NCBI GenBank assembly: GCA_033763775.1
Contig: JANRJW010000003.1
Span: forward strand, 40,753-104,752
Length of the DNA: 64,000 nucleotides
DNA from: Alphaproteobacteria bacterium
GTDB taxonomy: Bacteria; Pseudomonadota; Alphaproteobacteria; Rickettsiales; SXRF01
Direction of reading: 5' to 3'
Position 1 is the first letter of the stretch; each line of letters begins with the position of its first letter. Positions 5,959 to 57,215 of the stretch are shown one piece after another. The notes under the pieces are model-generated. The model saw only the letters and a program-made list of their open reading frames with translations, made no database searches and was not told where the DNA came from. The translations under genes were made by a program, and so were the position numbers.

Positions 5959-5963
5959 TTTTT

Positions 5964-7215: not shown

Positions 7216-7223
7216 GGGGGTGG

Positions 7224-17680: not shown

Positions 17681-17743
17681 AAATTCCAAACTTTTTCTGG
17701 TCATTCTGCGGTCAGCCCCCTAGCTTTGAGCTGGGAGTTTGTG

Positions 17744-18538
17744 ATGCGTTTTTTTATCATTGTTTGTTCTATCGCTTTTACATCCATGGCAGCGATCGCC
17801 GGCGCATGGACTCAGCCAGCGGGTCACAGCCAGCTGATTATCAGTGCAACCACCTACCACAGTGACAAGCGGCGTGAAGACTCAGGCATCACCACACGCC
17901 AGCCAACCTATCGCAAAACAGCCATCAACCCTTATTATGAATATGGCCTGACTGACCATATCACGCTGGGAGCCAATTTATTTTTGATTCATGCCAGCCA
18001 GCAGGAAAGCAGTCAGACCGGCCTGGGCGACAGCGAGTTTTTTCTTCGCCACCATCTACTGTCTTACAAGAGCTGGGTATGGTCGATCGAGCCGATGATC
18101 AAGCTACCAAGCCCTCATTCGACCAGTGATACCCTGTCGCTTGGCAGCGATAGCGCAGATCTTGGCCTCACCACCAGAGCTGGCTATAGTTTTCGCGCTT
18201 TATCGCGCAGTCATTATCTTGATCTGGCCAGTGGCTACCACTACCGTTTCGGCAGCCCGCTCGACCAGATAAAGCTCTCCGCCGCACTGGGTATCGGTTT
18301 GTCCCCCAGCTGGTCTTTGTTATCGCAGCTTGATACTGTCTGGCGAGTATCCGAGCCACAGATAACCCGCTTCACACAATCTCCGGCGGACGACTACAGC
18401 CTGATTAAAACCCAATTTTCAGCGCTATATCACCACAGCGAAAATACTCGTTGGCAAGTGGGATTATTCAGCCATCTGGACGGTCGTAACACCGGCCTTG
18501 GCACAGGTTTCATTGTATCCGCATGGAGGAATTTCTGA
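17744..18538 (+). CDS. Outer-membrane beta-barrel protein (MetA-pathway/transporter-like family)
   Basis: Signal peptide MRFFIIVCSIAFTSMAAIAGA, alternating beta-strand pattern, and the C-terminal aromatic ...VSAWRNF. I chose ATG 17744 after GGGAG because the track start at 17726 is TTG. Confidence 0.65.
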   Translation: MRFFIIVCSIAFTSMAAIAGAWTQPAGHSQLIISATTYHSDKRREDSGITTRQPTYRKTAINPYYEYGLTDHITLGANLFLIHASQQESSQTGLGDSEFFLRHHLLSYKSWVWSIEPMIKLPSPHSTSDTLSLGSDSADLGLTTRAGYSFRALSRSHYLDLASGYHYRFGSPLDQIKLSAALGIGLSPSWSLLSQLDTVWRVSEPQITRFTQSPADDYSLIKTQFSALYHHSENTRWQVGLFSHLDGRNTGLGTGFIVSAWRNF

Positions 18539-20406
18539 TGATCAAGCTGGGTGATATTCTGACCGGACGCGGCTGGATCAGCCAAGACATGCTGGCAAAA
18601 GCACTCCGTCTGCAGGAAAAGCAATCAGGTAAACTGGGCGATACATTGGTGGCGCTGGGCGCTATAGGTCTTCGCCAGCTGCATCAGGCTTTGGCCGACC
18701 AACATGGGCTGCGCTACGTCAATCTGATGGATGAACCACCAGAATCGACGCTGCTGCATCAGATGCTCTCGCCCGAGCTGTGCCTATCGCGCAGATTAGT
18801 CCCATGGCGCCGCCATGAGGATGGCGGACTGATGATTGCCGTCACCGACCCGAGCGAAGAAACTAGAAAATGGTGCCGTAAACAATTTGGTAGCCTGACG
18901 CATCTGGTGATGACATCGCCAATGGATATTCGCCTGATTCTCCAGCGCGAGTGTGGCCTGCAGCTTGAGCAGGCGAGCATTCTTTCGCTATGGCAGCGTA
19001 ATCCTCTGCTTTCGTCTCGAAATATCTGGTGGCCGGCGCAGCAGCGATGGTTTGCCGCGCTGGGGCTTATGATCGCACTGTGTTTACTGATGGCGCCATG
19101 GCAAACACTCGTAGCGCTGATGGTCATTTTCAATCTGTTATTTTTTGCCACCTTGCTGTTTAAGAGCATTATTTTTCTTTCAGGACTGAGGCCGCAACCA
19201 ACGCTTAACTGGCAGCAGATACTCGCGGATCTGGATGAGGCCAGCCTCCCCGTCTATACCATTCTTGTACCGATGTACCGCGAGAAAGAAAGCCTGCCGG
19301 GAATGATGAAGTCGCTTGCCGCGCTTGATTATCCTGTCTCACGGCTGGATATCAAGCTGGTACTGGAGGCTGACGATGAAGAGACTTACCGCGCAGCCTG
19401 CGCTCTGAAACCGCCCTACCATATTGATATCATCCTCGTACCTGCCAGCCATCCGCGCACCAAGCCCAAAGCATGCAATTATGCGCTTCGTTTTGCGCGC
19501 GGCGAATACATCACCATTTACGATGCAGATGATCGGCCAGAACCAACGCAGCTGAAAAAGGCGGTGGCCATGTTTCGGCGCCTGCCGCCGGAAGTGGTCT
19601 GCCTGCAGGCCAGGCTGAACTACTATAATGCTGGCGATAATCTGCTGACACGTTTCTTCTGCCTCGAATATGCGATGCTGTTTGGCACACTGATGCCCGG
19701 GCTACAGCGCCTCGGCATTCCCATGCCGCTGGGTGGCACCAGTAATCATCTCGCGCTGGCGAAGCTGCGTGCGCTTGGTGAGTGGGATCCGTTTAATGTG
19801 ACCGAAGATGCAGATCTCGGCACACGCCTTTGCCTAGAAGGCGGCAAAACAGAAATGCTTGATTCCTTTACGCTTGAAGAAGCACCGATTCATGTCATGC
19901 CGTGGATACGTCAGCGTGGCCGTTGGATTAAAGGCTATATGCAGACCTGGCTGGTATATATGCGTGCACCCATCATGCTTTATCAATCACTGGGGCTGGC
20001 TGGCTTTGTCGGTTTTCAGTTCTTCATGGGGCTTTCCTGCCTGACATTTCTCGTGGCGCCGCTGGTCTGGCTGGTCAGCCTGCTATGGCTCACGGGATCG
20101 GCGCTGCATCATCTTCCTGAATGGCTGATAATGCTGGCGGTGGTCAATCTTGCATTTAATATCCTTGGCCACTGGATCATGGCCGCGGCCAGCCTGACAC
20201 ACCAGCATCACAGCAAACTTCGCCTGCTTTCAGGCGTGCTGTTTTTCCCGCTTTATCTGGCACTCCATTCCCTCGCCAGCTACCGCGCGCTATGGCAACT
20301 TTTTGTCGCGCCGCATCTATGGGATAAAACAGAGCATGGCCTGAGCCAGCCATCCGCGCCAAATATCTCAGAAAATGAGGCGCTTAAAGTGAGAGTTGCA
20401 GCGTAA
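18538..20406 (+). CDS. Membrane-embedded processive family-2 glycosyltransferase with N-terminal MshEN (T2SSE_N) c-di-GMP-binding domain
   Basis: A tandem 24-residue MshEN motif lies at 18544..18702. GT2 blocks are [26 protein letters not shown] (19519..19533) and QRGRW (19912..19926). There are 2 TM segments before and about 4 after the GT domain. ATG 18538 overlaps the upstream TGA and follows GGAGGA. Confidence 0.8.
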
Positions 20407-23139: not shown

Positions 23140-25470
23140 TTACGCCCTGCTACTGCTGAACTGCAGCGCGCCAAGCAGCGACGACTGCAGGCTGCGCGCC
23201 TGAGCAATCACCGCAACCGCCGCATTCACCCGCACCGCAGACTGCGCATAGTTGATCGATTCCTCAGCAATATCAGTATCCACCAGCACGCTGCGCGCCT
23301 GGGTGAGGCCCTCGATGGTGCTGCTTAAATTACTGCGTGCAAAATCAAGCCGCTGCTGCTGCGCCCCCAATGTGCTGATCGTGCCAAGCACCGCATTGCG
23401 CGCAATCGCAATCGCGCTTTGCGCCGCTGCAGCAGCGGACTGGCTGGCCACGCTTGGCAAAGTGCCGTTAAACAGTGCGCTGCTGCGCGCATCGTCAATC
23501 ACTACATTCAATACATCATCACTGCTGATACCAAGCTGAAATCTTGCGCCATTATCGCTGGCGCCAAGCCGCAGTGCTGAGCGAAACGCCGATGCAAAAG
23601 CTGCCGCTGCTTCAGCATCCGAAAAATTCTTCTCAACGGATCCATTTCTTAGAATCAGCTGTTTATTGCTATCCACGACACTGCTGAACACCACCGTTTC
23701 ATACGCGCCGATACGCCCGCCCAGCCCTGTTTCCGCGCTGAACTCTTCGCCATTAATCACCAGCTTGATACGCCCATCCGCGCTCGTGGGCGCGGTGACA
23801 GTGAGACTATCAATACGCACATCGCTGAAATCTTTCAGCTGCAGCCGCGCTGAAGCGTCCAGAAAACTGCCCGCCGCCACCACATTACTCACCGGACGGC
23901 TGTTATAAAATGTCAGGGTAGAAAATGCGGCATTCATACGGCTTGCAAACGTATCAGCGCTGCTTTGATTAGTCACAGCCAGCCCGCCGGAAGCAAGCTG
24001 CACATCCAGATACCCGCCCTCATTCGAGCGCAGCCGCACAGTGGTGTTGGTTGCTGGTGTGGTGTCGCTGATGGTGGCGCTGTACACACTGCTGCCCACT
24101 GTCAGATTGAGGGTGATATTATCGGCTGAGTTATAGGTCGCGGAAAAGCCCTGAATCGTGCCGATAAAATCGCCGTTATTGATGGCTGAAACATTCACGC
24201 CGGTTGTCGTGCCATTATTCAGCGTTGTCGTTGAGAGGGTGCCATTAGCAATTGTTTCAGCAATATCCAGCGCGGCGCCGCTGAGATCGGTGGGGTTGCC
24301 CGGGGTTTGACTGCGAATCGTGAGCGTATTGCCGCTGATAGAAAACTCCAGCTGCCGCAGCCCATAATTATCGCTGCCCTGATACTGGCTGAGTTTGGCG
24401 ACAATATTCTGGAGCGTCTCTTCCGTCGTTGCGCCAATTTGAATTTCCGTGGCAGTCGAGGCGCTATTGCTGAAGCTGAAATTAATCAGGCCGCCATTGC
24501 CATTGTCGATGCGCAGCTGCTCACCGGCCGTGACGGCACCATTTAGCGTTAGCGTTGCGCTGGCCGCGACCTGCGACTGCGCGGTGACCAGCGAATCACC
24601 CACAATGCCCGCCGCGCGCGTGCTGGAAAACCCCAGCCCATTATCAGCGCCGCCGGAAAGCGTAAACACGTTGGTCACGCTGGTGGCACCGCCCGAGGTA
24701 GTGAATGTGGTGGTGGAGCCGGCTTGGTTAATCACAAACTGGTTGCCCAAGGTGCCGCCGGAACGTGCGGTGAGCGTCAGCACGTTGGTGCCGGTGCGTT
24801 CAGCCCGAACGCCAGAAAGTGCGGTGTTTGTAGAATTATTGATGGCAAGCACCAGATTATCGAGCGTTGTTTGCGTGCTGCCGCCCACGGCAAAATCCGT
24901 ATTCGCCGCCAGCGAAACACCATTCAGCACCACCGTCTGACCTGCGGTCGGGTTCGCACTGAAAGTGAGCGCAGCGCTTGCTTTGGTGGCTGGGGTTGAT
25001 TGTGTCAGTGCTTTAGCTGCGCCGGAGAGTGCGCCGGAAAGCAGCCGAATGGCATTAAAGGAAGTGTTGCTCGCAATGCGATCAATCTCAGAAAGATACT
25101 GGCTGAATTGCTGCTGCAGAAATGCACGGTCTGTGCTGGTGAGTGATGCGCTGTTGGCCTGCACAGCGGTGGCATTCATCTGGTCGAGTATCTCGCGAAT
25201 CTGGCCAAGTCCGCTATCGGCGACCTGAAGCAGGCTGGTGCCCTGCGCGACATTGATGGAGGCTTGCTTCAGCCCGGAAATCTGCGACTGCATACGCGCC
25301 GCGATGGAAAACGACGCCACATCATCGCTGGCGCGCGCCAGACGATTACCACTGGAAAGCCGCAGCGTCGAGTCAGCCAGCTCGTCGCTGGCGCGGTTTA
25401 GAGAAAATAAAGCCGGAGTAAAAAACGCTGAGGAACTCAGCGACGAAGAAATCGTCGTCATAGACATCAT
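23140..25470 (-). CDS. Flagellin, unusually large (776 aa)
   Basis: The N-terminal flagellin domain contains LRLSSGNRLARASDDVASFSIAARMQSQISGLKQASINVAQGTSLLQVADSGL. The C-terminal domain contains LGAQQQRLDFARSNLSSTIEGLTQARSVLVDTDIAEESINYAQSAV. Between them is a Thr/Ser/Gly/Asn-rich insert of about 540 aa. Confidence 0.85.
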   Translation of the reverse strand: MMSMTTISSSLSSSAFFTPALFSLNRASDELADSTLRLSSGNRLARASDDVASFSIAARMQSQISGLKQASINVAQGTSLLQVADSGLGQIREILDQMNATAVQANSASLTSTDRAFLQQQFSQYLSEIDRIASNTSFNAIRLLSGALSGAAKALTQSTPATKASAALTFSANPTAGQTVVLNGVSLAANTDFAVGGSTQTTLDNLVLAINNSTNTALSGVRAERTGTNVLTLTARSGGTLGNQFVINQAGSTTTFTTSGGATSVTNVFTLSGGADNGLGFSSTRAAGIVGDSLVTAQSQVAASATLTLNGAVTAGEQLRIDNGNGGLINFSFSNSASTATEIQIGATTEETLQNIVAKLSQYQGSDNYGLRQLEFSISGNTLTIRSQTPGNPTDLSGAALDIAETIANGTLSTTTLNNGTTTGVNVSAINNGDFIGTIQGFSATYNSADNITLNLTVGSSVYSATISDTTPATNTTVRLRSNEGGYLDVQLASGGLAVTNQSSADTFASRMNAAFSTLTFYNSRPVSNVVAAGSFLDASARLQLKDFSDVRIDSLTVTAPTSADGRIKLVINGEEFSAETGLGGRIGAYETVVFSSVVDSNKQLILRNGSVEKNFSDAEAAAAFASAFRSALRLGASDNGARFQLGISSDDVLNVVIDDARSSALFNGTLPSVASQSAAAAAQSAIAIARNAVLGTISTLGAQQQRLDFARSNLSSTIEGLTQARSVLVDTDIAEESINYAQSAVRVNAAVAVIAQARSLQSSLLGALQFSSSRA

Positions 25471-25727: not shown

Positions 25728-27548
25728 ATGTGCGGCATCCTTGGCATTACTGGGAACAAACCCGCAGCACAGCGCATCCTCGAGGGGCTGCGCCAGCTGG
25801 AATATCGCGGCTATGATTCTGCGGGCATTGCCACGCTGACCCACGGCGGCATTGAACGCCGGCGCGCGCAGGGCAAGCTGAATCATCTGGCTGATGAGCT
25901 CAAAAAAGCACCACTTACCGGCACCACCGGCATCGGCCACACACGATGGGCAACCCACGGCGCGCCAAGCGAGACCAATGCCCACCCTCACGCCACGGAT
26001 AAGGTCGCGGTGGTGCATAATGGCATCATCGAAAATTTCAAAGAGATTAAAGATCGCCTGATCGCGCGCGGCCACCATTTCTACAGCCAGACCGATACCG
26101 AAGTCGTGCCCGTGCTGGTAACTGATCTTCTGAGCGAAGGGCTAAGCCCGCGCGACGCCGTGATGCAGGCGCTGGGAGAGCTGCGCGGCGCCTATGCGCT
26201 GGCGCTTATCTTTGCGGATCATCCAGATTTAGTGATTGCTGCGCGAAACGGCCCGCCGCTGGCCATCGGCTATGGCGAAGGCGAGAACTACCTCGGTTCG
26301 GATGCGATTGCGTTATCGCACCTCACCAGCCGTATCACCTATCTGGAAGATGGAGACTGGGCGGTCATCACCCCCGGTAGCGTCACCATCTATGACAGCA
26401 CCCATCAGGAAACATCCCGGGCAGTGCTGCAATCTGCCTACAGCAGCGGCGCCATCGCCAAAGGCAATTACCGCCACTACATGCAGAAAGAAATTTACGA
26501 GCAGCCGGGCGTGGTCGGCGAAACCCTCAAGCTTTACTGCAACCCGGATACACTCACCACCACCCTGCCCACGCTGCCGTTTGATCTTGCGGCCATCCAG
26601 CGCGTACAGCTGGTGGCGTGCGGCACATCATACTATGCGGCCAGCGTCGCGAAATACTGGATAGAGTCGATGGCGCGCCTGCCGGTGGATGTTGATATTG
26701 CTTCGGAATATCGTTATCGCCAGCCGATTATTGATAAAAACACGCTATGCGTTGTCATTTCGCAATCAGGCGAAACTGCCGATACGCTCGCGGTGCTGCG
26801 CATGGTCAAACCCATTCAGCCGACACTCGCTATTGTCAACGTGCCGGAAAGCACCATCGCACGAGAAGCAGGCGCCGTGCTGCACACCTATGCCGGGCCG
26901 GAAATCGGCGTGGCCTCCACCAAAGCATTCACCACCCAGCTCGCCACGCTTGCCTGCCTGACGCTGGCACTGGCGGATGCCCGCAAATCTGCGCCAGTAG
27001 AGCAGCTTAAAGCGTGGTGTTCGCATCTGCTTGAACTACCAGTGCTGATGAATGAAGCGCTACACCATGATCATGCGCTGCAGGCACTGGCCAGCAACCT
27101 GATGCATGCGCGCGATATGCTCTATATCGGTCGCGGCACCAGCTATGCCATCGCCATGGAAGGCGCGCTGAAAATGAAAGAAATTTCCTATATTCATGCC
27201 GAAGCCTACGCCGCAGGCGAGCTCAAACATGGCCCCATTGCGCTGATTGATGAGCAGGTGCCGATTATGGTGCTCGCGCCCAGCGATAGCTGGTTTGAAA
27301 AAACCGCCTCCAACCTTCAGGAGGCCGCAGCGCGCGGCGGCCGCATTGTGCTTGTTACGGATAAAAAAGGCGCAGATGCCACAGGCGATATGGCCAGCGC
27401 CACCATCGTCATGCCAACATGTGACGCGTTTGTCGCCCCCCTGCTCTATGCGCTGCCCATGCAGCTACTCGCCTATCATACGGCTGTACTCAAAGGCACG
27501 GATGTTGACCAGCCGAGAAATCTTGCCAAGTCTGTTACTGTGGAATAA
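25728..27548 (+). CDS. glmS: Glutamine--fructose-6-phosphate aminotransferase
   Basis: MCGILGI N-terminal nucleophile, two SIS domains, and the C-terminal ...KSVTVE. Confidence 0.95.
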   Translation: MCGILGITGNKPAAQRILEGLRQLEYRGYDSAGIATLTHGGIERRRAQGKLNHLADELKKAPLTGTTGIGHTRWATHGAPSETNAHPHATDKVAVVHNGIIENFKEIKDRLIARGHHFYSQTDTEVVPVLVTDLLSEGLSPRDAVMQALGELRGAYALALIFADHPDLVIAARNGPPLAIGYGEGENYLGSDAIALSHLTSRITYLEDGDWAVITPGSVTIYDSTHQETSRAVLQSAYSSGAIAKGNYRHYMQKEIYEQPGVVGETLKLYCNPDTLTTTLPTLPFDLAAIQRVQLVACGTSYYAASVAKYWIESMARLPVDVDIASEYRYRQPIIDKNTLCVVISQSGETADTLAVLRMVKPIQPTLAIVNVPESTIAREAGAVLHTYAGPEIGVASTKAFTTQLATLACLTLALADARKSAPVEQLKAWCSHLLELPVLMNEALHHDHALQALASNLMHARDMLYIGRGTSYAIAMEGALKMKEISYIHAEAYAAGELKHGPIALIDEQVPIMVLAPSDSWFEKTASNLQEAAARGGRIVLVTDKKGADATGDMASATIVMPTCDAFVAPLLYALPMQLLAYHTAVLKGTDVDQPRNLAKSVTVE

Positions 27549-27560
27549 GCACTGCTTAAC

Positions 27561-28334
27561 TTACCAGAACGTGGGTAGCACCGCGCCATAGAGCGCACAC
27601 AGCATCACCGCCAGCCCAAATGCCGCCGTGTAAGGCGCATGCATCAAGCCCAGCTTGCGAGCCAGCCAGAACAGCAACCAGAAGGCAGCATAAAGCACAA
27701 GAAATTGAGGCAGCAGGGCAGCGCCCACACAAAGCCCGCCCACTACCAGCACCAGCGCCGGCGGCGGCAAGGTATAAATATGCCCGACCTTCACCAGCTT
27801 TTTTCGCCATATCACCGCGGCAAGCAGGAGTGCATACAGCGCCCCTTCCACCATCGGATAAAGGCTGTGATCCATCAGCAGCCGCAGCAGCGCGCCGGAA
27901 ACCGCCACCACCACCATCATGTTTTTCATCACCATGCCCTCGTTGGCATGAATCGCTGCAAGTACAACCAGAAAAACCCCAAGCATGGTGACGAGTAGAA
28001 ACTGCTCACCATAATTAAACTTGAAGTAAGCAAGCACCAATAGCGCGGCGACCAGCAGCTCTGTCCATGTATGCGAAACAGGAAAAGGCGTTTTGCAGTA
28101 ACGGCAGCGATGCCGCAGTATCAGTGCAGAAAATACGGGAAAAAGATCTTTGGTCGCAAGCGGCGTGCCGCAGTGGCCGCAATAAGGTGGCTTATCGAGC
28201 ACCAGACGGCCACGTGGCAGCCGATGCACCAGACTACAGGCATAATTCCCAATCGCAAAACCCACGGCAATCGACCAGATGATACCACAGATCACATAGC
28301 CGATTTTAACATCCAGCACGCCATCGAACATCAA
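27561..28334 (-). CDS. Prepilin peptidase (A24/PilD) homologue lacking the GxGD catalytic motif
   Basis: The N-terminal HRLP...CGHCGTPL...CRYCKTPF Cys-box domain and about 7 TM segments align with PilD as I remember it. There is no Asp in the last ~108 residues. Confidence 0.7.
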   Translation of the reverse strand: MMFDGVLDVKIGYVICGIIWSIAVGFAIGNYACSLVHRLPRGRLVLDKPPYCGHCGTPLATKDLFPVFSALILRHRCRYCKTPFPVSHTWTELLVAALLVLAYFKFNYGEQFLLVTMLGVFLVVLAAIHANEGMVMKNMMVVVAVSGALLRLLMDHSLYPMVEGALYALLLAAVIWRKKLVKVGHIYTLPPPALVLVVGGLCVGAALLPQFLVLYAAFWLLFWLARKLGLMHAPYTAAFGLAVMLCALYGAVLPTFW

Positions 28335-29605
28335 TTCGCCACCGCCAGTGTGGGAGTGACCAGCGAATCAATAAACCGCCCCTGAAAGAGTGTGATACCA
28401 AGGCCATGGCCATAATCAACGGCGAGTTTGTTATCACACCGGCATAAAATCACACGGTTATGCCCACAATCGGCGACCGCTTTTGCCAGCTCAACATTCT
28501 GACGGTTGCTGAGATCCGATTCAACATCCGCATTCCACTGCACTTTCAGCAGATCCAGCGAGAGCCTTTTGCGATCAATATTGATAAAGCTGTTAATGGT
28601 CAGGCCATCGAGACACACGCGATAGCCCATTTTCTGAGCCTGCGTGCGAGCCAGTATGAAGGCAGACATATCGGCAAACACATCCACCACCGGCAACTCA
28701 AGCACCACCGAGGATTTGATCTCCGGCGCCAGCATCGCATCAAACGCATCAAAATGTTCGGAAAGCAGCGTTTCTACGTTCAGGTTGATGCTGACCGGGT
28801 TCAGCCGCAGCGAAACCGCATCACGACGTATCAGATCCAGCACGCGTTCATCCATGGCGCAGCTGAGATATTTAAACAACCATCGATTCGTGAGCATGTG
28901 GGAATCGGCCACCAACACCTGCCGAAGCTGTGGAATATGCAGGTAACACTCGTCAAACAGGCGGCGTGCAGAAAAATTCTGCCCCACGACACAGACCGGC
29001 TGGCGACGCATCACCGACGCCAGATCCACCGATCGAATCTCTGCTTCAATAGCCTCAAAAAGCGGCAGGCCAGCGCTCACCTGCGATGGCTGCGACGGCG
29101 CTGAAGCGGCCGGAGTTACTGTTCTCACAGATTCCAGCACAGGCGTGCGAGGCGAGGATTCTGTCTGGCGTTCTGGCTGTGTGGTTTTACGAGCTGCAGC
29201 GGCCATGCGGCGATTGCACATTTCGGCAAAACCATTCCAATCACGCGCAAGATCATAAATCGTGCAGAAATCAGGGTTTTCGTGGCCTTCATCGGTATAG
29301 GCGAGCGGATCATCCATGTAGAGATACCGCAGCTGAAACACCAGCTTGTTCAGCACTGTTTTTTCCAGCTGCTGCACCAGCACAATAATGCCATGATCCT
29401 GCAGCAGAAAAATACCGCCTTCATAGGTTTTGAGCAGGTCGTTGATCAGGTTAATAGCGATTTTCACCTGATATTCGCTCTGATATTGCTCAAGCAGATC
29501 GGAGAGCTTGAAGTGCACCGCTTGCCACCCCTGCGGGTCGCGGATGGTGCTCAGCATGTCCACCAGCTTAGCTTCTGCAGAACGCATGATGATCGCGATC
29601 GTCAT
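28331..29605 (-). CDS. Degenerate EAL-domain protein with novel N-terminal domain
   Basis: The C-terminal ~240 aa follow the EAL block order: RRQPV, ECY (in place of EAL), INLNV, VVLELP, CLDGLT (in place of DDFGTG), LKVQ (in place of KxD), and FQGRFI. The stop overlaps the next gene's ATG (ATGA). Confidence 0.6.
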   Translation of the reverse strand: MTIAIIMRSAEAKLVDMLSTIRDPQGWQAVHFKLSDLLEQYQSEYQVKIAINLINDLLKTYEGGIFLLQDHGIIVLVQQLEKTVLNKLVFQLRYLYMDDPLAYTDEGHENPDFCTIYDLARDWNGFAEMCNRRMAAAARKTTQPERQTESSPRTPVLESVRTVTPAASAPSQPSQVSAGLPLFEAIEAEIRSVDLASVMRRQPVCVVGQNFSARRLFDECYLHIPQLRQVLVADSHMLTNRWLFKYLSCAMDERVLDLIRRDAVSLRLNPVSINLNVETLLSEHFDAFDAMLAPEIKSSVVLELPVVDVFADMSAFILARTQAQKMGYRVCLDGLTINSFINIDRKRLSLDLLKVQWNADVESDLSNRQNVELAKAVADCGHNRVILCRCDNKLAVDYGHGLGITLFQGRFIDSLVTPTLAVAN

Positions 29606-29608
29606 GGC

Positions 29609-32386
29609 TTAATTCCCAATAATACGTTTTGATACATAAGCTTCCAGCGAGTCGGTATCCGTGGTCATGTCCGCATCGTCGACCGAGCCGGTAAGCTGCA
29701 CACTGAGTGTCGGCACGGTTTCCGAAGTCATGGCAGGAAACTGGAATAAAGTCGAGAGATTCATCGTCCAGGCAATCAGCCTGAGCTCACCGGTGAGGTT
29801 GCCCAGCATATTACCGGATTTAAGCGTAATGCCTGGCGTACGCACCAGCCCGTTTTTGACATTCAGATAGCCTTCCAGCGAAAATTCTGTGCTGCCATTG
29901 GGTAGTGCCAGATTCACATTGGTCACCACATCAGCCGTTGTACGCGATACTGCAACCGTATCCACCACGCCCCTGAGATTAAAGTTTGACACATTCACCC
30001 CCACGCCGTTGATCGTCAGCTTAGCATCTGCCTGCTGCACCCACGATAGCGGATTAACGCCAGATGTTGTTATCGAGCCGCTGACGCCCACTCTGCCGGT
30101 GATATTGTTGCGCTTACTGAAAGTGGCGATAATTTCTGCAAGGTCGGCATTAGTGATGGTAAAGCCAAGCGATGTTCCCGGCACCTTGCCACCATAGAGC
30201 GTGCCGGTAATATCGCAGCGCCCCTGCCAGAAACCAAAATTAAGCGCCTGAATAGTCAGCACACGGTCACGCAGCACTGATTTCATGCGAAAGCGCTGCA
30301 ACACCGTATCGCGGTGAATCAGCCGCCCAAGGCTGATATCGAAGGTGGCGTTATACCCCTCCATCCAGCTCATATCGAACAGTTCCTCAGGCCATGCCTT
30401 GCCGCCCTGCTGGCTGGGTTTCAGCGCAGCAATATCCGTCTCTACGTCCTTATCTAAGGCAGTGCCGGTGACATCGGCAGCATTTTCCGGCGTGGCCATG
30501 AAGTAGCGCGTATTCAGATCGCTGCCATCATTATAAACCAGTGAGAAAAAGGGTACATCGCCCTTCACATTCAGGTTAAAACTCGCCTCAACCGTGTGGC
30601 TCGGATAGTAAAAGCGCAGGTTATAAATACCAAATTCGCCCTCCTGAGCAAAAAGCCTGAACGCGGCGGATTGTCCGGGGGTGTCCAGAAATGTAAACCC
30701 ATCCACAATCACTTTGAAATCAACGCTCGTTTTCAGTTTTTTGAGCCAGCTGAAATTCATGCTTTTATCAAAGCGCAGAAAATAATCGCTTTTATTCTGG
30801 CTGGAGCGACCTTCGCGCCACACATCGCGGAAATAGTCAAAATTAATATCACGCAGCTTAACATCCGCCTCGATGCGTGGCTTGCCATCAAAATAAGCCA
30901 CCATACCACCGCTCAGATTCAGCTCATTGAGTTTTACTTCTGCCTCAGAAAGCCGCACCTGCTCTGGCGAGATAAACAGATTGGAGCGCACCGAAAACGC
31001 GCCAAACCCTGCCTCTGGCAAATCGCCGGCATTAGGGTCAAGCAGAGTCATCACCTCACGCAGGCTGGAACCCTGCGATTCCATGGTTCCCTCAAAGCGC
31101 AGATTTTTGGATGCACCTTGTGAAATGATACCAAACAACGACAATGATGCATCACCCGGCAGCTGGATTCCGAGCTGATTGATGGTAATAGCAGCATCCT
31201 CCATCTCCGCAGAAAGCCTTGCCTTCTGCCAGGTTTTATCACCCATGAGCACCGTCTCAGCCGTAGCATTCACATTCAGCCTCAGCTGGTCTGGCAGCGC
31301 CATCTGGGGTTTTTCAAACTCATCCCGCATCATCGCCGCAGCATCAGGTTTTCTCTGTTCAGCCAGCAGCAGCATTAACGATTGCCAGTCATGAAACTGA
31401 AACTGCGAAAAGTCCGCCCGCACATCAAACGCAGGCGCTTTGTCCCAGGCAAAGCTGATGCTACCGGCTGCTTTTGAACCCAGCCCTTCAAAGGCCGCTT
31501 CTTTCAGCGCTACCGCCCAGCCATCCTGCGACCAGACACCCGCAAGTTTTATCGGTAGTAGCGGCTGCGATGCATCCTGCGCCGGGGTTGATGGCTGCAT
31601 CGAAAGCCAGTAGTTAAGATCTTCGATACGGCTTGCAAAATCACCGCTGATACTAAGTTTCTCATGCACATAGCCGAGCTGGCCTTTTAGCGTGATTTCG
31701 TCGTTCCTGCTGGCAAGACGAACATCCAGCGGGCGCAAACCATCTGGCGTCGACGCTGGCGCAAGCGCTGCATTCAAGCGCAGATTATGCCCTGCAATCT
31801 CAACACCACCGGAAAGATTCAGCTGGCTACCGGTATTGATCGTCAGATTAATATTCCTGATGGGTAGCGCCTGATTACTCAGGTCGTTGTAATAAAACAC
31901 TCTGCCACTGACAAACACCAGCTCCATCGGCCGCGCAGGCTCGCCGGAGCGCAGCATCGGCTCGAGCAGATCCTGCGCCAGCCAGTCCCAGTGCACTTTA
32001 CCATCATTGGCTCGGCGCATCTCAAGCAGCGAATTTTCGAAAGTAATCGACGAAACGATAATCTGATCCGAAAAAAGCGATAGCATATCCGCGCTGATAT
32101 ACACAGCCTGAGCCGTGAAGGTCGGGGCGGGGTCTTTATCGTCGATACCGCGCAGTTCCAGCCCCGGCACAAAAAGACCGGGCGTTGGCAAGAGCCGCGC
32201 CGTCACACGCCCTTTGATGACGACATCTTTGCCTGTACGCTCTTTGATGGTGCGAATAATCTGCTCGCGGTAATCCTTGGTATCGATGAAACCTTGCGCC
32301 ACCAGCGTCACACCAAGCAGCAGCAGCACGCCAGCCGCCACGCCAACCAATTTTCGCAGAACAGACTGAAATGAGTGTTTAATCAT
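29609..32386 (-). CDS. AsmA-family protein
   Basis: 925 aa with an N-terminal TM anchor (VGVAAGVLLLLGVTLVAQG). The AsmA-like N-terminal block is YREQIIRTIKERTGKDVVIKGRV, followed by a long beta-rich body. Confidence 0.8.
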   Translation of the reverse strand: MIKHSFQSVLRKLVGVAAGVLLLLGVTLVAQGFIDTKDYREQIIRTIKERTGKDVVIKGRVTARLLPTPGLFVPGLELRGIDDKDPAPTFTAQAVYISADMLSLFSDQIIVSSITFENSLLEMRRANDGKVHWDWLAQDLLEPMLRSGEPARPMELVFVSGRVFYYNDLSNQALPIRNINLTINTGSQLNLSGGVEIAGHNLRLNAALAPASTPDGLRPLDVRLASRNDEITLKGQLGYVHEKLSISGDFASRIEDLNYWLSMQPSTPAQDASQPLLPIKLAGVWSQDGWAVALKEAAFEGLGSKAAGSISFAWDKAPAFDVRADFSQFQFHDWQSLMLLLAEQRKPDAAAMMRDEFEKPQMALPDQLRLNVNATAETVLMGDKTWQKARLSAEMEDAAITINQLGIQLPGDASLSLFGIISQGASKNLRFEGTMESQGSSLREVMTLLDPNAGDLPEAGFGAFSVRSNLFISPEQVRLSEAEVKLNELNLSGGMVAYFDGKPRIEADVKLRDINFDYFRDVWREGRSSQNKSDYFLRFDKSMNFSWLKKLKTSVDFKVIVDGFTFLDTPGQSAAFRLFAQEGEFGIYNLRFYYPSHTVEASFNLNVKGDVPFFSLVYNDGSDLNTRYFMATPENAADVTGTALDKDVETDIAALKPSQQGGKAWPEELFDMSWMEGYNATFDISLGRLIHRDTVLQRFRMKSVLRDRVLTIQALNFGFWQGRCDITGTLYGGKVPGTSLGFTITNADLAEIIATFSKRNNITGRVGVSGSITTSGVNPLSWVQQADAKLTINGVGVNVSNFNLRGVVDTVAVSRTTADVVTNVNLALPNGSTEFSLEGYLNVKNGLVRTPGITLKSGNMLGNLTGELRLIAWTMNLSTLFQFPAMTSETVPTLSVQLTGSVDDADMTTDTDSLEAYVSKRIIGN

Positions 32387-32449
32387 GGCACGCTTGGAAT
32401 ATCATCACGAACAGATATCGTAGGGAGTATTCCATAATTTTTCACTAAA

Positions 32450-33067
32450 TTATTTTGTAATCATGAAAACACCCTGCTCGCCACACAGGTTGGCAAGCAA
32501 GCCATAGCGGGAAAATCTTGCTGGCGCGCCCTGATGCGACACCCATAGACGCTGCTCAATCGTCAGGCCCAGCGTTTCGCACAGCACCACAAAATCACGA
32601 ATCGTGCAGAAATGAATATTCGGCGTATCATACCACTGATAGCTGAGGCTGCGCGTCACCGGCATACGGCCATGCCACAGCAGGTAAAAACGGTTTTTCC
32701 AGTGGCCGAAATTCGGCACCGACACAATCGCATGACGGCCAATACGCACCAGCTGTTCCAGCACTTCTCTGGGGTTATCCAGCGCCTGCAGTGTCTGGCT
32801 GAGAATGGCGTAGTCATAGGCCTGCGTCGGATAATAGGCAAGATCGCTGCTAGCATCGCCCTGAATCACTGAAAGTCCGCGCGCAATGGCACGATTAACG
32901 CGCTGCTGGTTGATTTCAATGCCACGGCCACGAATCGCTTTTTCACGCTGCAGCCAGTCGAGCAGGTCGCCCTCGCCGCAGCCAATGTCAATCACACTGG
33001 CGCCGTGGGGCACCATGCTGGCAATCGCCTGTAAATCGACACGAAGCAGGCTCATACCACGCCCCAT
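32450..33067 (-). CDS. metW: Methionine biosynthesis protein MetW
   Basis: SAM-MTase-like [15 protein letters not shown]. It overlaps the metX 3' end, which is the classic metXW pair. Confidence 0.9.
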
Positions 33068-34278
33068 TTTCGTGCTGATCCATCCAGAAACCCCTGCAAT
33101 GTTTCATCGAACACCGGCAAATCAAGCAGAAAGGAATCATGCCCCTTATCGCTATCGATCTCCGCATAGCTGACATCCGCGGCCACTGCGTTCAGTGCAC
33201 GCACCAGCCGCTTGCTCTCAGCGGGCGTGTAGAGCCAGTCGCTGGTAAAGGCCACCACCAGAAACCTGACCGACGTGCCGGCAAACACCTCCGCAAGACC
33301 ATGCTTGCCTCCGCTCGTCAGGTCAAAATAGCTGGCAGCGCGGGTGAGGTAGAGGTAACTATTCGCATCAAAGCGATCAACAAAGCTCATGCCCTGATGA
33401 CGCAGGTAGCTTTCAATCGTAAAATCCGCATCAAACCCATAAGTGTAGTGCTCGCGGTTTTGCAGGCTGCGGCCAAATTTCTGCTGCAGCATCGCTTCTG
33501 AAAGATAGGTCACATGCGCTGCCATCCGCGCCACAGCCAGCCCTTTGCTGGGATACTGATGCTGCTGAATGTAGCTGCCGCCGCACCAGCTAGGATCGGC
33601 CATAATCGCCTGGCGGCCAATTTCATGAAACGCGATATTCTGGGCAGACTGGCGAGTGGCGGTGGCAATCACCGCTGCTGATTGAACACGCTGGGGAAAT
33701 CGCACCGTCCATTCCAGCGCCTGCATACCGCCCATGGATCCGCCCACCACCGCAAACAACCGCTCTATACCAAGATAATCCAGCAGCAGCGCCTGCGCCT
33801 GCACCATGTCGCCCATAGTGATAAACGGAAAATCCAGCCCATAAGGCTGGCCGGTGTCGGGGTTTGTTTCTTTCGGGCCAAACGATCCCATGCAGCCGCC
33901 CATCACATTGCTGCACACCACAAAAAAACGATCCGTATCAATCGGCTTGCCAGCGCCAACCATGCGGTGCCACCAGCCGTCTTTTCCAGTCACGGGGTGG
34001 GTGCCGCACACATATTGATCCCCGGTTAATGCGTGGCAGATTAGAATCGCATTGCTGCGCTCGGCGTTAAGCTTGCCGTAGGTCTGATAGGCAATAGGAA
34101 TATCACGCACGCTGACGCCGCTTTCCAGCTTCAGCGGGTTGCTAGCAGCAAGACGCACCACATGTCCTACGTCCACCTGCCGGTACGATGCACCAAAAAA
34201 AGAAACCACCATCCTTTCTTGATAGGTGATGCGTGTGAGCGGGTCAAGCGCCTGCCGCCCTCGAGTTGCGCTTGCCAT
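33052..34278 (-). CDS. metX: Homoserine O-acetyltransferase
   Basis: Alpha/beta hydrolase with [12 protein letters not shown] and [10 protein letters not shown]. The start is uncertain, and an internal Met is possible. Confidence 0.9.
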
Positions 34279-38893: not shown

Positions 38894-40714
38894 CTAATAC
38901 CCCTCAATGTCTTTCATGCCTCCGCTCAGGAAGCGGCGGCCGTAATAGCCGAAATCGCGCGCGGCGTCATCATGGAAAAACATCAGATCATCATTCATCC
39001 GGCGGGCGATCTCGCCGTTGATATGTTTTTTACGTGTCATCACGCCGACCATATCAAGAATAAACGGCAAGGTCGTATTCTCTTCAATTCGTGGGCGCCT
39101 GCCGCAGACAGCGAAGATGCGCTCGAGCATCGCACGGTAGGTCAGCACCTCGCCGCCGCTCACATTATACGCCTTGCCATAAGCGGCTGTGCAGTTCACC
39201 AGCTTCACCGCAGCGGAGCCAAGATCGTCCGCATGCACTGGCTGGCGTTTACCCACCGCCGGCGGGTAGACCGGCAGAAAATTGAGAAAACCAATCAGCT
39301 TGGCCAGCGAGGTCACATTCACATCCAGCCCCACCCCGTAGGTCATGGTCGGGCGCAGGAGGGTGCATTTCATGCCCATTTGCGCGGTGCGCTCCAGCGT
39401 ATCACGCTCGGCGCGCGCCAGCTTTTCCACCAGCCCCTGCTCATAGCTGTTGCGCGAGAGCACTTTGCCAAACACCGAGGTCGAGCCAAACGCAATCACC
39501 CGCGCCACCTCCGCCTGCTTGAGCAGTGCCAGTGTCGGCGGCAGGTGCCACAGCGGCGCGCAATGCACCACCACATCCACCAGATAGCCGTCAAGATGCA
39601 GCGCATCATCGGTCAGATCGCCCTTCAGCCAGCGCAAATGCTCATGTTCAAAAGCAATGGGGTCGCTGCGGCTGATTGCCAGCACACCAGCGCCCGCGGC
39701 AATCATATGTTTCACCACACTCAGGCCAACCTGACTGGTCGCGCCGGTCACCAGCACCGTTTTGCCGGCTAGTTCGCCGGTGACGGGCAGGTCAGCGAGG
39801 CCGGACGCCAGCACCATGAGCCGTTTATCGGCAATGCTGTGCGACATAGCATAGCTCGGCCGCGCTTTCACACTCAGCCAGTAACGGGTGACGCGCCATG
39901 CCATCACCAGCAGCGCCGCCAGCCGCACCAGCAGCATCATCCCCGGCGGGTAGCCAGCTGCGAAATGCTTGGAAAAATAATGCACCACCCCGCGCATACG
40001 CTGCCATTCAAGACGATAACGTCTGCTGTTATCATTCGTATTCAGCCGGGTGACGCGTATGTTAGTAGCAAGCAATGTGCGTCCGCCAATACGGTGCACA
40101 CGTTGGCACAAATCCATGCCAGCGCCGCGCACCACATACGCCTCATCGAGCCCGCCAAGCTGCTGATAATCCTTGCGGCGCAAGCACAGGCAGGCGCCAG
40201 AAACCGCAGGCACCAGCTGCACACCCGCACTGATCTCGACAGGCGCCGGATTTTTTTTGCCAAAAGGCCAAAGCCTTGCCAGTGCCGAGCGCGCAGAAAG
40301 AAGGCTGCGCGCATGGTCGCCCATCAGCTGACCGCGTGCATTACGCGTGGCAGCGCCCACCAGCACAGCATCGCTATGCGACTCAAACGCAGCCATCATG
40401 GTTTCAATCGCCGCGGGCGGCAGCAGACAGTCAGGATTCAGTAGCAGCACATAATAGCCGCTGGCCTGCTGAACTCCGAGATTAGATCCTTTGGCATAGC
40501 CGACGTTCCCGTGGCCGCTGACCACCTTCAGGCGGCGCTCGGTCAGCGCGAGCTGGCGCAGCCGCGCAAGCACATCCGGCGGGTTTCCATTATCCACCAC
40601 CACCAGCTCAGCAAGCTGCTTCTGCCTGAGCACACTGCTGATAGAGGCAAAAAGAATCGCTCCCGTGTGATACGACACCATCACAACGCTGGTCGTGGTC
40701 ATACGGCGCTCCAT
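38894..40714 (-). CDS. Fusion protein: family-2 glycosyltransferase (N-terminal) + NAD-dependent epimerase/dehydratase SDR (C-terminal)
   Basis: The GT2 part has VVMVSYHTG...VVVDNGNP...LLLNPDC. A hydrophobic segment LLVRLAALLVMAW follows. The SDR part has VLVTGATSQVGLSVV. An alternative ATG at 40702 gives an ATGA overlap with rfbC. Confidence 0.7.
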   Translation of the reverse strand: MERRMTTTSVVMVSYHTGAILFASISSVLRQKQLAELVVVDNGNPPDVLARLRQLALTERRLKVVSGHGNVGYAKGSNLGVQQASGYYVLLLNPDCLLPPAAIETMMAAFESHSDAVLVGAATRNARGQLMGDHARSLLSARSALARLWPFGKKNPAPVEISAGVQLVPAVSGACLCLRRKDYQQLGGLDEAYVVRGAGMDLCQRVHRIGGRTLLATNIRVTRLNTNDNSRRYRLEWQRMRGVVHYFSKHFAAGYPPGMMLLVRLAALLVMAWRVTRYWLSVKARPSYAMSHSIADKRLMVLASGLADLPVTGELAGKTVLVTGATSQVGLSVVKHMIAAGAGVLAISRSDPIAFEHEHLRWLKGDLTDDALHLDGYLVDVVVHCAPLWHLPPTLALLKQAEVARVIAFGSTSVFGKVLSRNSYEQGLVEKLARAERDTLERTAQMGMKCTLLRPTMTYGVGLDVNVTSLAKLIGFLNFLPVYPPAVGKRQPVHADDLGSAAVKLVNCTAAYGKAYNVSGGEVLTYRAMLERIFAVCGRRPRIEENTTLPFILDMVGVMTRKKHINGEIARRMNDDLMFFHDDAARDFGYYGRRFLSGGMKDIEGY

Positions 40715-41259
40715 CTGGTTGGATTAGCACAATATTCCTGCCAGCTGGGCTGCTGGGTATCGCGCGCGGAAAGAACCGGATTTTGAACCGGCCACGCAAT
40801 TGCCAGCGCCGCGTCATCAAAACGAATACCCCCCTCGCCCTCGCGGCGATACGGCGCATCAACTTTGTATACCACATCCGCCGGTTCGTCGCCCATCACG
40901 CAGAAACCATGAGCAAACCCAGCAGGCACCCACAGCAGCAGACCGTTCATGTCCGAAAGCTCAAGACCAACATGGCGGCCAAATGTCGGCGAATGCGGCC
41001 GAATATCCACCGCCACATCAAAAATCCGCCCGCGTGTCACCCCCACCAGCTTGCCTTGTGCTGGCTCGTGCTGGTAGTGCAGCCCGCGCAGCACGCCCGG
41101 CGCTGAGCGCGAGTGATTATCCTGAACAAAATCATGCGCAAGGCCATGCGCTGCCCACTGGCTGGCCTGAAAGCGCTCGACAAAAAAACCGCGTTCATCC
41201 CCCAGCACATTCAGCTGAATCACCTTGAGGTCAGCGATCGGAGTATCAATCACGCGCAT
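40699..41259 (-). CDS. rfbC: dTDP-4-dehydrorhamnose 3,5-epimerase
   Basis: GDERGFFVERF and LRGLHYQ blocks. Length 186 aa. Confidence 0.9.
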   Translation of the reverse strand: MRVIDTPIADLKVIQLNVLGDERGFFVERFQASQWAAHGLAHDFVQDNHSRSAPGVLRGLHYQHEPAQGKLVGVTRGRIFDVAVDIRPHSPTFGRHVGLELSDMNGLLLWVPAGFAHGFCVMGDEPADVVYKVDAPYRREGEGGIRFDDAALAIAWPVQNPVLSARDTQQPSWQEYCANPTRWSAV

Positions 41260-42160
41260 GGGAAAACTTCACTCTGAAACAAGCCTCAAGCCCGCACATC
41301 CATTCATCCATGGCGACTCCAAGAACCCGCTTTGCCTTCTCGCAGCTAAGCCGCGAGTTCTTCGGGCGCGCGGCTGGCACGGGGTAGTCAGAGGTCGCAA
41401 TTGGCAGAACCTGCTGGCATGTCAGGCTGTAGTTCTGAACCGAATTCATGGCTCTGGCAAGCGTAAAAATTGCCGTCGCAAAGCCATGCCAGCTGGTTTC
41501 GCCGGCCGCCGCCAGATGATAAACGCCGCGGGGAAAAACCGGCTGAGAAAGTGCCGCCTCCAACCCAGCCACCAGCTCGCGGGCAAACATCGGCACATAG
41601 GTTGGCGCGCCGATCTGATCCGCCACCACACGCAGCGTCTCGCGCTCTTTCATCAGCCGCAGCATGGTGTTAAAAAAATTGTTGCCATGCGCGTCGTAAA
41701 GCCATGAGGTGCGAAAAATCAGATAATCACCACCAGCCTGCTCAATCAGCTGCTCACCCGCCAGCTTATGCGCGCCATAAGCATTCAGCGGCGCTGTCTG
41801 TTCATCTTCGCGGCGTGCGTGCTTGCCGCTGCCATCAAACACATAGTCGGTCGATACATGCACCAGCGGCAAGCCATGGCGCACGCACCATTGCGCCAGC
41901 TCGCCCACCGCCTCAGCATTGATACGCAGCGACATCGCCGCGCCTTCGCCCTGCGCCTTATCCACCTGCGTGTAGGCTGCGGCATTAATCACTGCATGTG
42001 GCCGCCCCTTGGCCAGCGCCAGCTCAAGCTGTTGTGTGAAGTCCGGCGCCATTAGATCAAGCTGCGGCAACCCCACAAAACGCGCCTGCGATCCCAGTTG
42101 CTCGCTCAGCGCCTGTGCCAGCTGGCCACCCACGCCCAGCACCAGATATCGGGCGGTCAT
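41246..42160 (-). CDS. rfbD: dTDP-4-dehydrorhamnose reductase
   Basis: [11 protein letters not shown] Rossmann fold and STDYVFDG. Length 304 aa. Confidence 0.9.
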
Positions 42161-43035
42161 ACGCTGCCAAACTCGCGGGCAATGCTCGCAAGATAGGCGC
42201 CATAATCACTCTTGCCATAGGCGGCAATCAGCGCCTTAAACTGCGTAAGGTCAATCAAGCCGCGGCGTAGCGACACTTCTTCAAGACAGGCGATTTTCAC
42301 CCCCTGACGCGCCTCAATAATCTGCACATAGTGTGCGGCTTGCATCAGCGCGTCTGGCGTGCCGGTATCCAGCCATGCCGAGCCGCGGCCAAGTAGGTCA
42401 ACCTGCAGTGCGCCACGCGCAAGATAGGCTTTATTGACATCCGTTATTTCCAGCTCACCGCGCGGGGATGGCTTGAGTGATTCAGCAATCCTCACCACCT
42501 CTGCGTCATAAAAATAAAGCCCGGTCACCGCATAGTTGGATTTAGGCTGTTTTGGTTTTTCTTCAATCGAGAGGGCTTTGCCCGCAGCATCCATCTCCAC
42601 CACGCCATAGCGCTCAGGGTCACGCACCTGATAGGCAAAGACGCGTGCGCCCTCACGCAGGCTGGCCGCCTCTTCAAGTCGCTTGGTAAGCGACTGACCA
42701 TAAAAAATATTATCGCCCAGAATCAGACACACTGGCGATCCAGCGATGAATTCTCGGGCAATCAGAAATGCCTGAGCAATGCCTTCCGGCTTTGGCTGCT
42801 CGGCATAGTGCAGACGAAGGCCAAGCGCCGAGCCATCGCCAAGGAGTTCACGCATCAGCGGTAGATCGCGCGGGGTGGAAATAATCATCACCTCGCAAAT
42901 ACCCGCCAGCATGAGCACCGAAAGCGGATAAAACAACATCGGCTTATCATAAACCGGCAACATCTGCTTGCTGATGGCATTGGTCATCGGCGCAAGCCGT
43001 GTCCCAGCGCCGCCCGCCAGAATAATTCCCTTCAT
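42157..43035 (-). CDS. rfbA: Glucose-1-phosphate thymidylyltransferase
   Basis: [21 protein letters not shown] 43035 follows GGAGGG and overlaps the rfbB stop (ATGA). Confidence 0.9.
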
Positions 43036-47064: not shown

Positions 47065-47093
47065 TTGACGCGCTGAGCGGCCGTTGTTACCAT
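47065..47093 (+). promoter_or_regulatory. Candidate promoter for the PEPC-like gene
   Basis: TTGACG (47065..47070), a 17-nt spacer, then TACCAT (47088..47093). If real, it excludes the TTG start at 47084. Confidence 0.3.
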
Positions 47094-47122
47094 GCATTAA
47101 CGACTCAACCAACGGAAAATGC

Positions 47123-51353: not shown

Positions 51354-51445
51354 GGAGGGGTGGCCGAGTGGTCTAAGGCGCACGCCTGGAAAGTGTGTGT
51401 ACGGGTAACACTGTACCGTGAGTTCGAATCTCATCCCCTCCGCCA
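51354..51445 (+). tRNA. tRNA-Ser (anticodon GGA)
   Basis: The acceptor stem is GGAGGGG/CCCCTCC and the D arm is GCCGAGTGGTCTAAGGC. The anticodon loop is CTGGAAA. There is a long variable arm and the T arm GTGAGTTCGAATCTCAT. CCA is encoded. Confidence 0.9.
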
Positions 51446-51533
51446 TTTTCAGTTGGGTTTGTCAAAACCGTCTAGGCTTGAATCTAAGTTTCAAAAAATT
51501 ACATAGATTTTTTCCCACATAAGAAATTGTAAC

Positions 51534-52148: not shown

Positions 52149-52149
52149 G

Positions 52150-56577: not shown

Positions 56578-56579
56578 GG

Positions 56580-57200: not shown

Positions 57201-57215
57201 CGTATTTCTCCCTGT

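Follow-up and report, generated by a model that had tools for sequence, protein, structure and literature searches.

Does the run of three genes at positions 27561 to 32386 of a 64,000-nucleotide alphaproteobacterial DNA stretch (contig JANRJW010000003.1, positions 40,753 to 104,752; hereafter, the window) encode one functional unit, and what might such a unit do? The genes specify an AsmA-family protein, a protein with a divergent EAL domain (EAL-like protein), and a relative of the prepilin peptidases carrying an A24_N domain (A24_N protein). We found that their arrangement is nonrandom and conserved, with the EAL-like/A24_N pair as its core, and that both members of this pair have lost catalytic residues. 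A role for the pair as a nucleotide receptor on a membrane scaffold is proposed below as a tentative explanation and weighed against three others.

Gene order in the window and in related genomes

Five co-directional open reading frames (ORFs) occupy positions 27561 to 34278 of the minus strand, in the order metX, metW, AsmA-family gene, EAL-like gene, and A24_N gene. The last three had been singled out as co-directional in a preliminary description of the same DNA, and their coordinates and reading frames were confirmed. The AsmA-family gene (29609 to 32386) encodes 925 amino acids (aa), the EAL-like gene (28331 to 29605, with its stop codon at 28331 to 28333) encodes 424 aa, and the A24_N gene extends from 27561 to a likely ATG start at 28331. 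The TAA stop codon of the AsmA-family gene is followed by gcc and then by the ATG of the EAL-like gene, which is the 3-nt gap given previously. The 4-nt ATGA overlap reported for the next junction, however, is not present in the sequence. The letters read ...AAT TGA TG TTC..., so that a TTG start at 28334 (257 aa) would create a 4-nt TTGA overlap and an ATG start at 28331 a 1-nt TGATG overlap. Of the two, the ATG is favored, because A24_N orthologues begin with MFD... and a 94% identical orthologue (P0121) is 256 aa long. With a single strand, a 3-nt gap, a 1- or 4-nt overlap, and a conserved order, the three genes have the features of an operon.

Upstream of the triad, metW (32450 to 33067, minus strand; MetW match, 9e-74) is separated from the AsmA-family gene by 63 nt and is preceded by metX (33052 to 34278, minus strand; MetX match, 7e-160). 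Cotranscription of metXW with the AsmA-family gene may occur. On the other side, glmS (25728 to 27548, plus strand; SIS and GATase domains) is convergent to the A24_N gene, lies 12 nt from its stop codon, and forms the downstream boundary of the cluster. A scan of the cluster for consensus promoters and terminators returned counts equal to the shuffled expectation, and Rfam detected no riboswitch 5' of metX or elsewhere in the cluster. Within the last codons of metW, just 5' of the AsmA-family gene, a hairpin is followed by a T-run (32473 to 32501, minus strand). No other gene boundary of the cluster has a terminator-like site nearby. The hairpin could separate metXW transcription from that of the AsmA-family gene, but such sites are equally common in shuffled sequences.

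A scan of one genome per species with the EAL-like protein returned relatives in 364 genomes, and the best 80 were analyzed. All 80 loci were from metagenome-assembled genomes (MAGs) labeled Rickettsiales, Alphaproteobacteria, or "Azospirillum sp." Neighboring genes were called with hidden Markov models built from the three proteins, and the denominators given below are the loci with enough sequence. The EAL-like protein of the window is 99% identical to the one encoded on a contig of Rickettsiales bacterium RE-15aug16-6. The A24_N gene directly followed the EAL-like gene in 63 of 73 loci, mostly overlapping it or lying within approximately 30 nt. Of the remaining 10 loci, two carried a 1.4-kb insertion before the A24_N gene and eight had no A24_N gene. 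In a reciprocal scan of metagenome contigs with the A24_N protein, the EAL-like gene was directly upstream in 20 of the 21 loci with room for it, and in the last one (L109) the A24_N gene was inverted yet still adjacent. An AsmA-family gene directly preceded the EAL-like gene in 45 of 69 loci, with gaps of 0 to 20 nt in about half of the cases, and was not found within 8 kb in 24 of the 69. The full triad was present in 37 of 64 species-level genomes, among which EAL identity ranged from 42 to 99%. The preliminary description had made conservation across genomes the check on its proposal of a three-gene unit. Conservation was indeed found, but the boundaries of the unit have to be redrawn. Because the EAL-like and A24_N genes adjoin in most loci of both scans, whereas AsmA is missing in 24 of 69, it is the EAL-A24_N pair that forms the conserved core, within a single large clade, and AsmA looks like an ancestral, frequent third member of the cluster.

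In a tree of the EAL-like protein, the triad was found in both deep branches, and most of the AsmA-less loci formed one subclade. The two loci of this subclade that were scanned (L042 and L070) have a FYDLN_acid gene upstream of the EAL-like gene instead. The upstream genes of the divergent branches belong to the AsmA family by Pfam. Gene order was also retained in rearranged loci. In L073 and L078, the AsmA-family gene still adjoins the EAL-like gene but is inverted or divergent. In L001 and L003, metX and metW are separated by insertion sequence (IS) or toxin-antitoxin genes, and the AsmA-EAL-A24_N order is intact; L001 additionally carries a 680-aa gene (5788 to 7830 of that locus, plus strand) with a weak spermine-synthase-like domain between the AsmA-family and EAL-like genes. 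The metX and metW genes lie upstream of AsmA only in L001 to L031, which make up one main branch, and do not do so in the other branches; glmS is often convergent downstream in related loci. In view of these counts, there is next to no doubt about the existence and conservation of the cluster.

More than 1,000 full-length relatives of the EAL-like protein were found at approximately 50% identity. In an exhaustive profile search, 1,598 clusters (at 50% identity) were recovered, of which 548 had E values below 1e-30; when family clusters were looked up for a name or a cultured host, all entries were "hypothetical protein" from MAGs. Among distant family members, the two-domain unit is duplicated in tandem as a whole in P0248 (712 aa), P0319 (660 aa) has a 250-residue acidic low-complexity tail rich in Pro, Ala, and Glu, and P0299 is encoded beside Dot/Icm-type type IVB secretion genes. 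The mean pairwise distances were 0.37 for GlmS, 0.47 for the EAL-like protein, 0.62 for the A24_N protein, and 0.76 for AsmA.

Domains and catalytic residues of the three products

The EAL-like protein of the window matched the Pfam EAL family (PF00563) with 24.4 bits, below the cut-off of 31.3, whereas all 26 aligned relatives matched it at E values of 0.1 or less (best, 3.8e-11). The preliminary description had called it an EAL protein, which is right for the barrel and leaves out a second domain. The AlphaFold2 (AF2) model, with a mean predicted local distance difference test (pLDDT) score of 80, consists of an alpha/beta domain (residues 1 to 141; 29183 to 29605, minus strand), a disordered linker (residues 142 to 180), and a barrel (residues 185 to 424; 28334 to 29053, minus strand). 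The first domain is supported by AF2 and Foldseek and the divergent EAL domain by Pfam, Foldseek, and hhalign. The best Foldseek matches in the PDB were tandem GGDEF-EAL proteins, aligned over 440 to 470 columns. They included RbdA/PA0861 (5xgb; E, 2e-13), MorA, PA0575, LapD (6pwk, 3e-11; 3pjw, 1e-10), and FimX-type structures (4fok, 3hv9, and 4j40), while EAL-only structures gave E values of 1e-8 to 1e-7. In hhalign, the family aligned with a profile of six Escherichia coli EAL domains (E, 6e-5 over 202 columns) and failed to align with E. coli PdeH alone. Foldseek and hhalign thus both identify the EAL (beta/alpha) barrel fold. In the N-terminal domain (pLDDT, 81 to 95), a "GGIF" hairpin stands at the place expected for GGDEF, an invariant RYLYMDDP motif is present, and 30 columns are invariant. 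Pfam detected nothing else in the 424-aa protein, which has no HAMP or REC/PAS module and no transmembrane (TM) helices in the model.

To survey residue conservation, 99 orthologues were examined together with 149 cluster representatives. The QP motif, E219 (the Glu of EAL), N274, E303, D333, K354, and Q408 were kept in approximately 100%. The Asp pair, catalytic in EAL enzymes (PMC6717892), has become Asp-Gly, its second Asp being replaced by Gly in 99 of 99 orthologues. The Glu of EGVE is replaced by Cys, Thr, or Ser inside a new invariant motif, L-C-R-C-D, and the second Glu of ExxE by Val, Ile, Leu, or Ala. In place of the Arg of EALxR, Asn, His, or Ser is found, and the hairpin that bears this Arg is missing as well; both normally contact cyclic di-GMP (c-di-GMP). 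Mutagenesis of RocR reportedly showed the second Asp and the EGVE Glu to be essential. Because both are lost here, hydrolysis of c-di-GMP is unlikely, and judging from its sequence the EAL-like protein quite probably lacks phosphodiesterase activity. The degeneracy of the EAL domain described previously therefore extends to the whole family, and an active phosphodiesterase was rejected as a candidate function since catalytic residues are missing family-wide. A metal-1/phosphodiester site is preserved, which favors ligand binding and is no proof of it. Three invariant patches, GNYACSLVHRLPRG, DLFPV, and SHTWTE, would be candidates for the interface if the EAL-like and A24_N proteins dock.

The A24_N protein matched A24_N_bact (PF06750) with 65.4 bits, against a cut-off of 23. 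Peptidase_A24 was not matched by the window protein and was detected, weakly, in 1 of 26 members. An hhalign comparison with E. coli PppA (97% probability, residues 53 to 245) placed H129 and H185 in the two catalytic Asp columns. Among 72 orthologues, the first of these columns is occupied by Glu, His, Gln, Tyr, or Ala, with Asp in 3, and the second by His in 50 and by Asp in 4; none of the 72 has Asp at both positions. The four Cys residues C52, C55, C77, and C80, which form the two Cys pairs of the A24_N domain, are present in 70 to 72 of the 72 orthologues, E92 in 72, and D155 in 66, and P190 is nearly universal. Selection acts mainly on the cytoplasmic domain and not on the former protease core, as 45 of the 57 invariant columns fall within residues 17 to 95 (TM1 and the cytoplasmic domain). 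The AF2 model (pLDDT, 88) contains TM1, a cytoplasmic zinc-ribbon loop (residues 39 to 86), and seven further helices, giving eight TM helices in total. Foldseek comparison of this model with the PDB returned nothing significant, only presenilin chains at E values of approximately 1. The A24_N protein is very probably devoid of aspartyl protease activity, in agreement with its earlier designation as a polytopic pseudo-enzyme, and the active prepilin peptidase was dismissed as a candidate because the catalytic Asp residues are missing family-wide.

The AsmA-family assignment made in the preliminary description was borne out by a PF05170 match of 64.5 bits (cut-off, 29.8) and by an N-terminal membrane anchor at approximately residues 13 to 33, hydrophobic in the translation, which is followed by a long periplasmic AsmA-type domain. 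The NCBIfam AsmA model NF008091 matched only the C-terminal part of the protein (3e-14). An orthologue of E. coli AsmA, for which NF008091 is the equivalog, was rejected, as the score of 52.3 bits is far below the cut-off of 412.

A proposed receptor on a membrane scaffold and its alternatives

From the gene order and its conservation, the domain identities, and the loss of catalytic residues, we infer a module, belonging to an uncultured lineage of alphaproteobacteria, in which a dead LapD/FimX-like receptor is docked on a pseudo-peptidase scaffold that was ancestrally coupled to an AsmA-type bridge. Taken as a whole, this reading is tentative, and our confidence in it is somewhat below even. 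The 424-aa protein would be a soluble, inactive receptor, comparable in architecture with the GGDEF-EAL module that LapD or FimX has in the cytoplasm, most likely binding c-di-GMP or a related nucleotide without hydrolyzing it. It would be translationally coupled to an eight-helix inner-membrane protein descended from prepilin peptidase and would probably dock on the zinc-binding cytoplasmic domain, the most conserved part of the A24_N protein. In the ancestral and commonest arrangement, the pair would be coexpressed with an inner-membrane-anchored, periplasm-spanning AsmA protein, and nucleotide occupancy might be relayed through the membrane scaffold and tune AsmA-dependent outer-membrane lipid and envelope homeostasis. 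The components of this proposal differ in strength. That the EAL-like and A24_N proteins act together is likely; c-di-GMP as the ligand is evenly balanced; AsmA as the output is a little less probable than that. The boldest version holds that a GxGD-protease scaffold was exapted and forms, with a dead EAL domain, a new kind of inner-membrane complex through which an AsmA-type intermembrane lipid bridge responds to a second messenger in the cytoplasm; it seems improbable.

With respect to the ligand, the window also encodes a 627-aa protein (18523 to 20406, plus strand) that joins an MshEN domain (2e-10) to a processive-type glycosyltransferase family 2 (GT2) domain and may be a c-di-GMP-gated polysaccharide synthase. 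Use of c-di-GMP by the organism is probable, given a domain of this c-di-GMP-binding type 7 kb from the module. The preliminary description had drawn attention to this synthase at a distance of 8 kb; the gene is real, and the distance is 7.2 kb. In the three loci whose gene calls were listed, the module had no MshEN synthase nearby. A 270-aa ORF without a Pfam match (17726 to 18538, plus strand) overlaps the start of the MshEN-GT2 gene.

No published description of the module was found in the literature, as the preliminary description had also stated for a system of this composition. The nearest analogue is suggested by LapD of Pseudomonas fluorescens and Vibrio cholerae, which is among the best structural matches, combines a tandem alpha/beta domain with a dead EAL domain, and controls a periplasmic or envelope process from the inner membrane. 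However, TM helices, a periplasmic domain, and a HAMP domain are part of LapD itself, whereas here the receptor is predicted to be soluble and the membrane part would be a separate, unrelated protein; the LapD EAL domain also binds c-di-GMP via residues that include the Arg missing here. The module therefore resembles, by analogy, a LapD split over two polypeptides and is no member of the LapD family. FimX of Pseudomonas and Xanthomonas is likewise a dead GGDEF-EAL protein and is tied to the type IV pilus, and the partner protein here descends from PilD. FimX differs from the EAL-like protein in its REC and PAS domains and in its binding to PilZ or to the ATPase PilB, and there are no pilus genes near our locus. 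PilD, GspO, and PppA (MEROPS A24A, GxGD aspartyl proteases and N-methyltransferases) share the four-Cys A24_N domain and the eight-TM core with the A24_N protein but keep the two catalytic Asp residues that no orthologue here combines.

Parallels for the AsmA side are looser. In the TamB-TamA and YdbH-YnbE pairs, an inner-membrane-anchored, periplasm-spanning AsmA-family protein is encoded beside accessory proteins, as it is here. TamA and YnbE, however, are outer-membrane or periplasmic partners, in contrast to a cytoplasmic EAL-like protein and a polytopic inner-membrane protein. To our knowledge, neither a cytoplasmic nucleotide-type regulator nor a polytopic inner-membrane partner has been described for AsmA-like bridges. 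An independent parallel is found in E. coli K-12 (NC_000913.3, 3676290 to 3679187; L086, 6291 to 9188), in which the EAL-only gene pdeH (yhjH) lies directly upstream of the AsmA-family gene yhjG, the two being co-directional and 69 nt apart. It differs from the triad in that PdeH is an active phosphodiesterase, is encoded first in the pair, and has no A24_N partner, and we know of no functional link between pdeH and yhjG.

Several observations weigh against the receptor-scaffold reading. The AsmA protein has a single TM anchor and approximately 12 cytoplasmic residues, so that coupling to it could occur only via the membrane scaffold. No EAL structure turned up in the PDB by sequence, whether the query was the family profile or only the EAL domain, and the fold search was relied on for this reason. 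In the N-terminal domain, Pfam detected no GGDEF signal and hhalign gave a probability of 0.1% against three E. coli GGDEF domains; as a sequence-level signal is absent, the domain may be called GGDEF-like on the structural resemblance found by Foldseek. Loss of the EALxR Arg and its hairpin makes ligand binding uncertain. Among the 80 best loci, every carrier is a MAG, no AsmA-family gene occurs within 8 kb in 24 of 69, and the two distant members of the EAL subfamily that were placed (P0299 and P0369) adjoin neither partner. A mirror-tree comparison gave a partial r of 0.11 between the EAL-like and A24_N proteins given GlmS, which is no coevolution beyond shared phylogeny, and no Rosetta-stone fusion was found among the long family members. 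Like the promoter and terminator scan, the Rfam comparison, the cluster look-ups, and the literature, these two analyses neither strengthened the model nor spoke against it.

The best-surviving alternative, which is possible but rather unlikely, is a ligand-independent envelope biogenesis factor in which the EAL-like protein acts by protein contacts and the pair serves as a constitutive inner-membrane partner or assembly platform of the AsmA protein, much as TamA does for TamB or YnbE for YdbH. A noncatalytic use of the EAL fold has precedents in YdiV and BluF of E. coli, which do not bind c-di-GMP. The loss of the EALxR Arg and hairpin is in line with this alternative, as are a degree of conservation close to that of GlmS, atypical of fast-evolving c-di-GMP receptors, and the location of the genes among the housekeeping genes metXW, glmS, and aro. 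However, YdiV and BluF have lost most of the metal and substrate residues, whereas the EAL-like family keeps E219, N274, E303, D333, K354, and Q408 almost invariantly. The strict metal-1 ligands together with K354, Q408, and the QP motif are hard to explain without a phosphodiester ligand, and AsmA is not always adjacent to the pair.

Inherited synteny is an unlikely alternative and ranks slightly lower. According to it, the EAL-like and A24_N proteins may cooperate, and AsmA, like metXW and glmS, is a stable neighbor in a slowly rearranging region. It would account for the synteny of metXW and glmS over long distances, for a whole subclade that keeps the pair without an AsmA neighbor, for the lack of excess coevolution, and for the uninformative promoter and terminator scans. 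Nevertheless, the AsmA-EAL gaps of 0 to 20 nt in about half of the loci argue for a closer association, and the adjacency has outlasted both the IS and toxin-antitoxin insertions that break metX from metW and the inversions in L073 and L078. The adjacent EAL and AsmA-family genes of E. coli, pdeH and yhjG, also speak against a mere accident of gene order.

The weakest alternative holds that the A24_N protein is still an enzyme regulated by the EAL-like protein, either a stand-alone N-methyltransferase or a protease of new chemistry (H185, D155, and E92), that its substrate is pilin-like or another membrane protein, and that AsmA is merely a syntenic neighbor. The cytoplasmic four-Cys domain of PilD is linked to methyltransferase activity. 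Almost perfect conservation of this domain, the newly conserved polar residues (H185 in 50, E92 in 72, and D155 in 66 of 72 orthologues), and the action of FimX-type receptors on type IV pilus machinery are compatible with such an enzyme, but it is improbable given that the 64-kb window contains no pilin, pilus, or type II secretion genes, that Peptidase_A24 is undetectable in 25 of 26 members, that H185 is not universal, and that methylation by PilD normally requires a cleaved N terminus.

Other features of the window and significance of the module

Elsewhere in the window, a flagellin gene (23140 to 25470, minus strand) encodes an unusually long protein (776 aa), in which approximately 540 residues are inserted between canonical N- and C-terminal flagellin domains. 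A 606-aa GT2-epimerase fusion is encoded directly 3' of a complete rmlBADC-type dTDP-rhamnose set (38894 to 44048, minus strand), and a 1,122-aa ORF (47084 to 50452, plus strand) matched no Pfam family at an E value of 1e-4 or less. At 51354 to 53067, a MutH/MvaI-like endonuclease and an N6/N4 DNA methylase form a type II restriction-modification pair. It lies beside a tRNA gene (51354 to 51442) in a patch of low guanine-plus-cytosine content (0.48 at 52 to 54 kb), and this patch is probably a small acquired island. Further on, a duplicated block encodes Pirin, YceI, cytochrome b561, YceI, and Pirin (54594 to 57929, minus strand).

The component proteins of the module belong to known superfamilies and carry the database labels "EAL domain protein," "prepilin peptidase," and "AsmA family." What is undescribed, as far as we found, is the conserved module, the dead-peptidase family, and the fixed half-site EAL signature. 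This signature, which combines retained E, N, E, D, K, and Q with a change of DD to DG and a new LCRCD motif, defines a large uncharacterized EAL subfamily of approximately 1,600 clusters at 50% identity. Its A24_N partners make up the first clear catalytically dead A24 peptidase family known to us, so that both partners, a dead EAL protein and a dead prepilin peptidase, are pseudo-enzymes under strong purifying selection.

The module bears on how AsmA-like lipid bridges are regulated and docked at the inner membrane. We know of no second-messenger input into these bridges, and the module, which is phylogenetically robust and occurs in hundreds of species, is a candidate for one. The pdeH-yhjG pair of E. 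coli provides a tractable place to probe a functional link between EAL and AsmA-family proteins. If the boldest version of the proposal is true, the module would represent the first inner-membrane partner of an AsmA-like protein and the first control of phospholipid traffic to the outer membrane by c-di-GMP or a related nucleotide.

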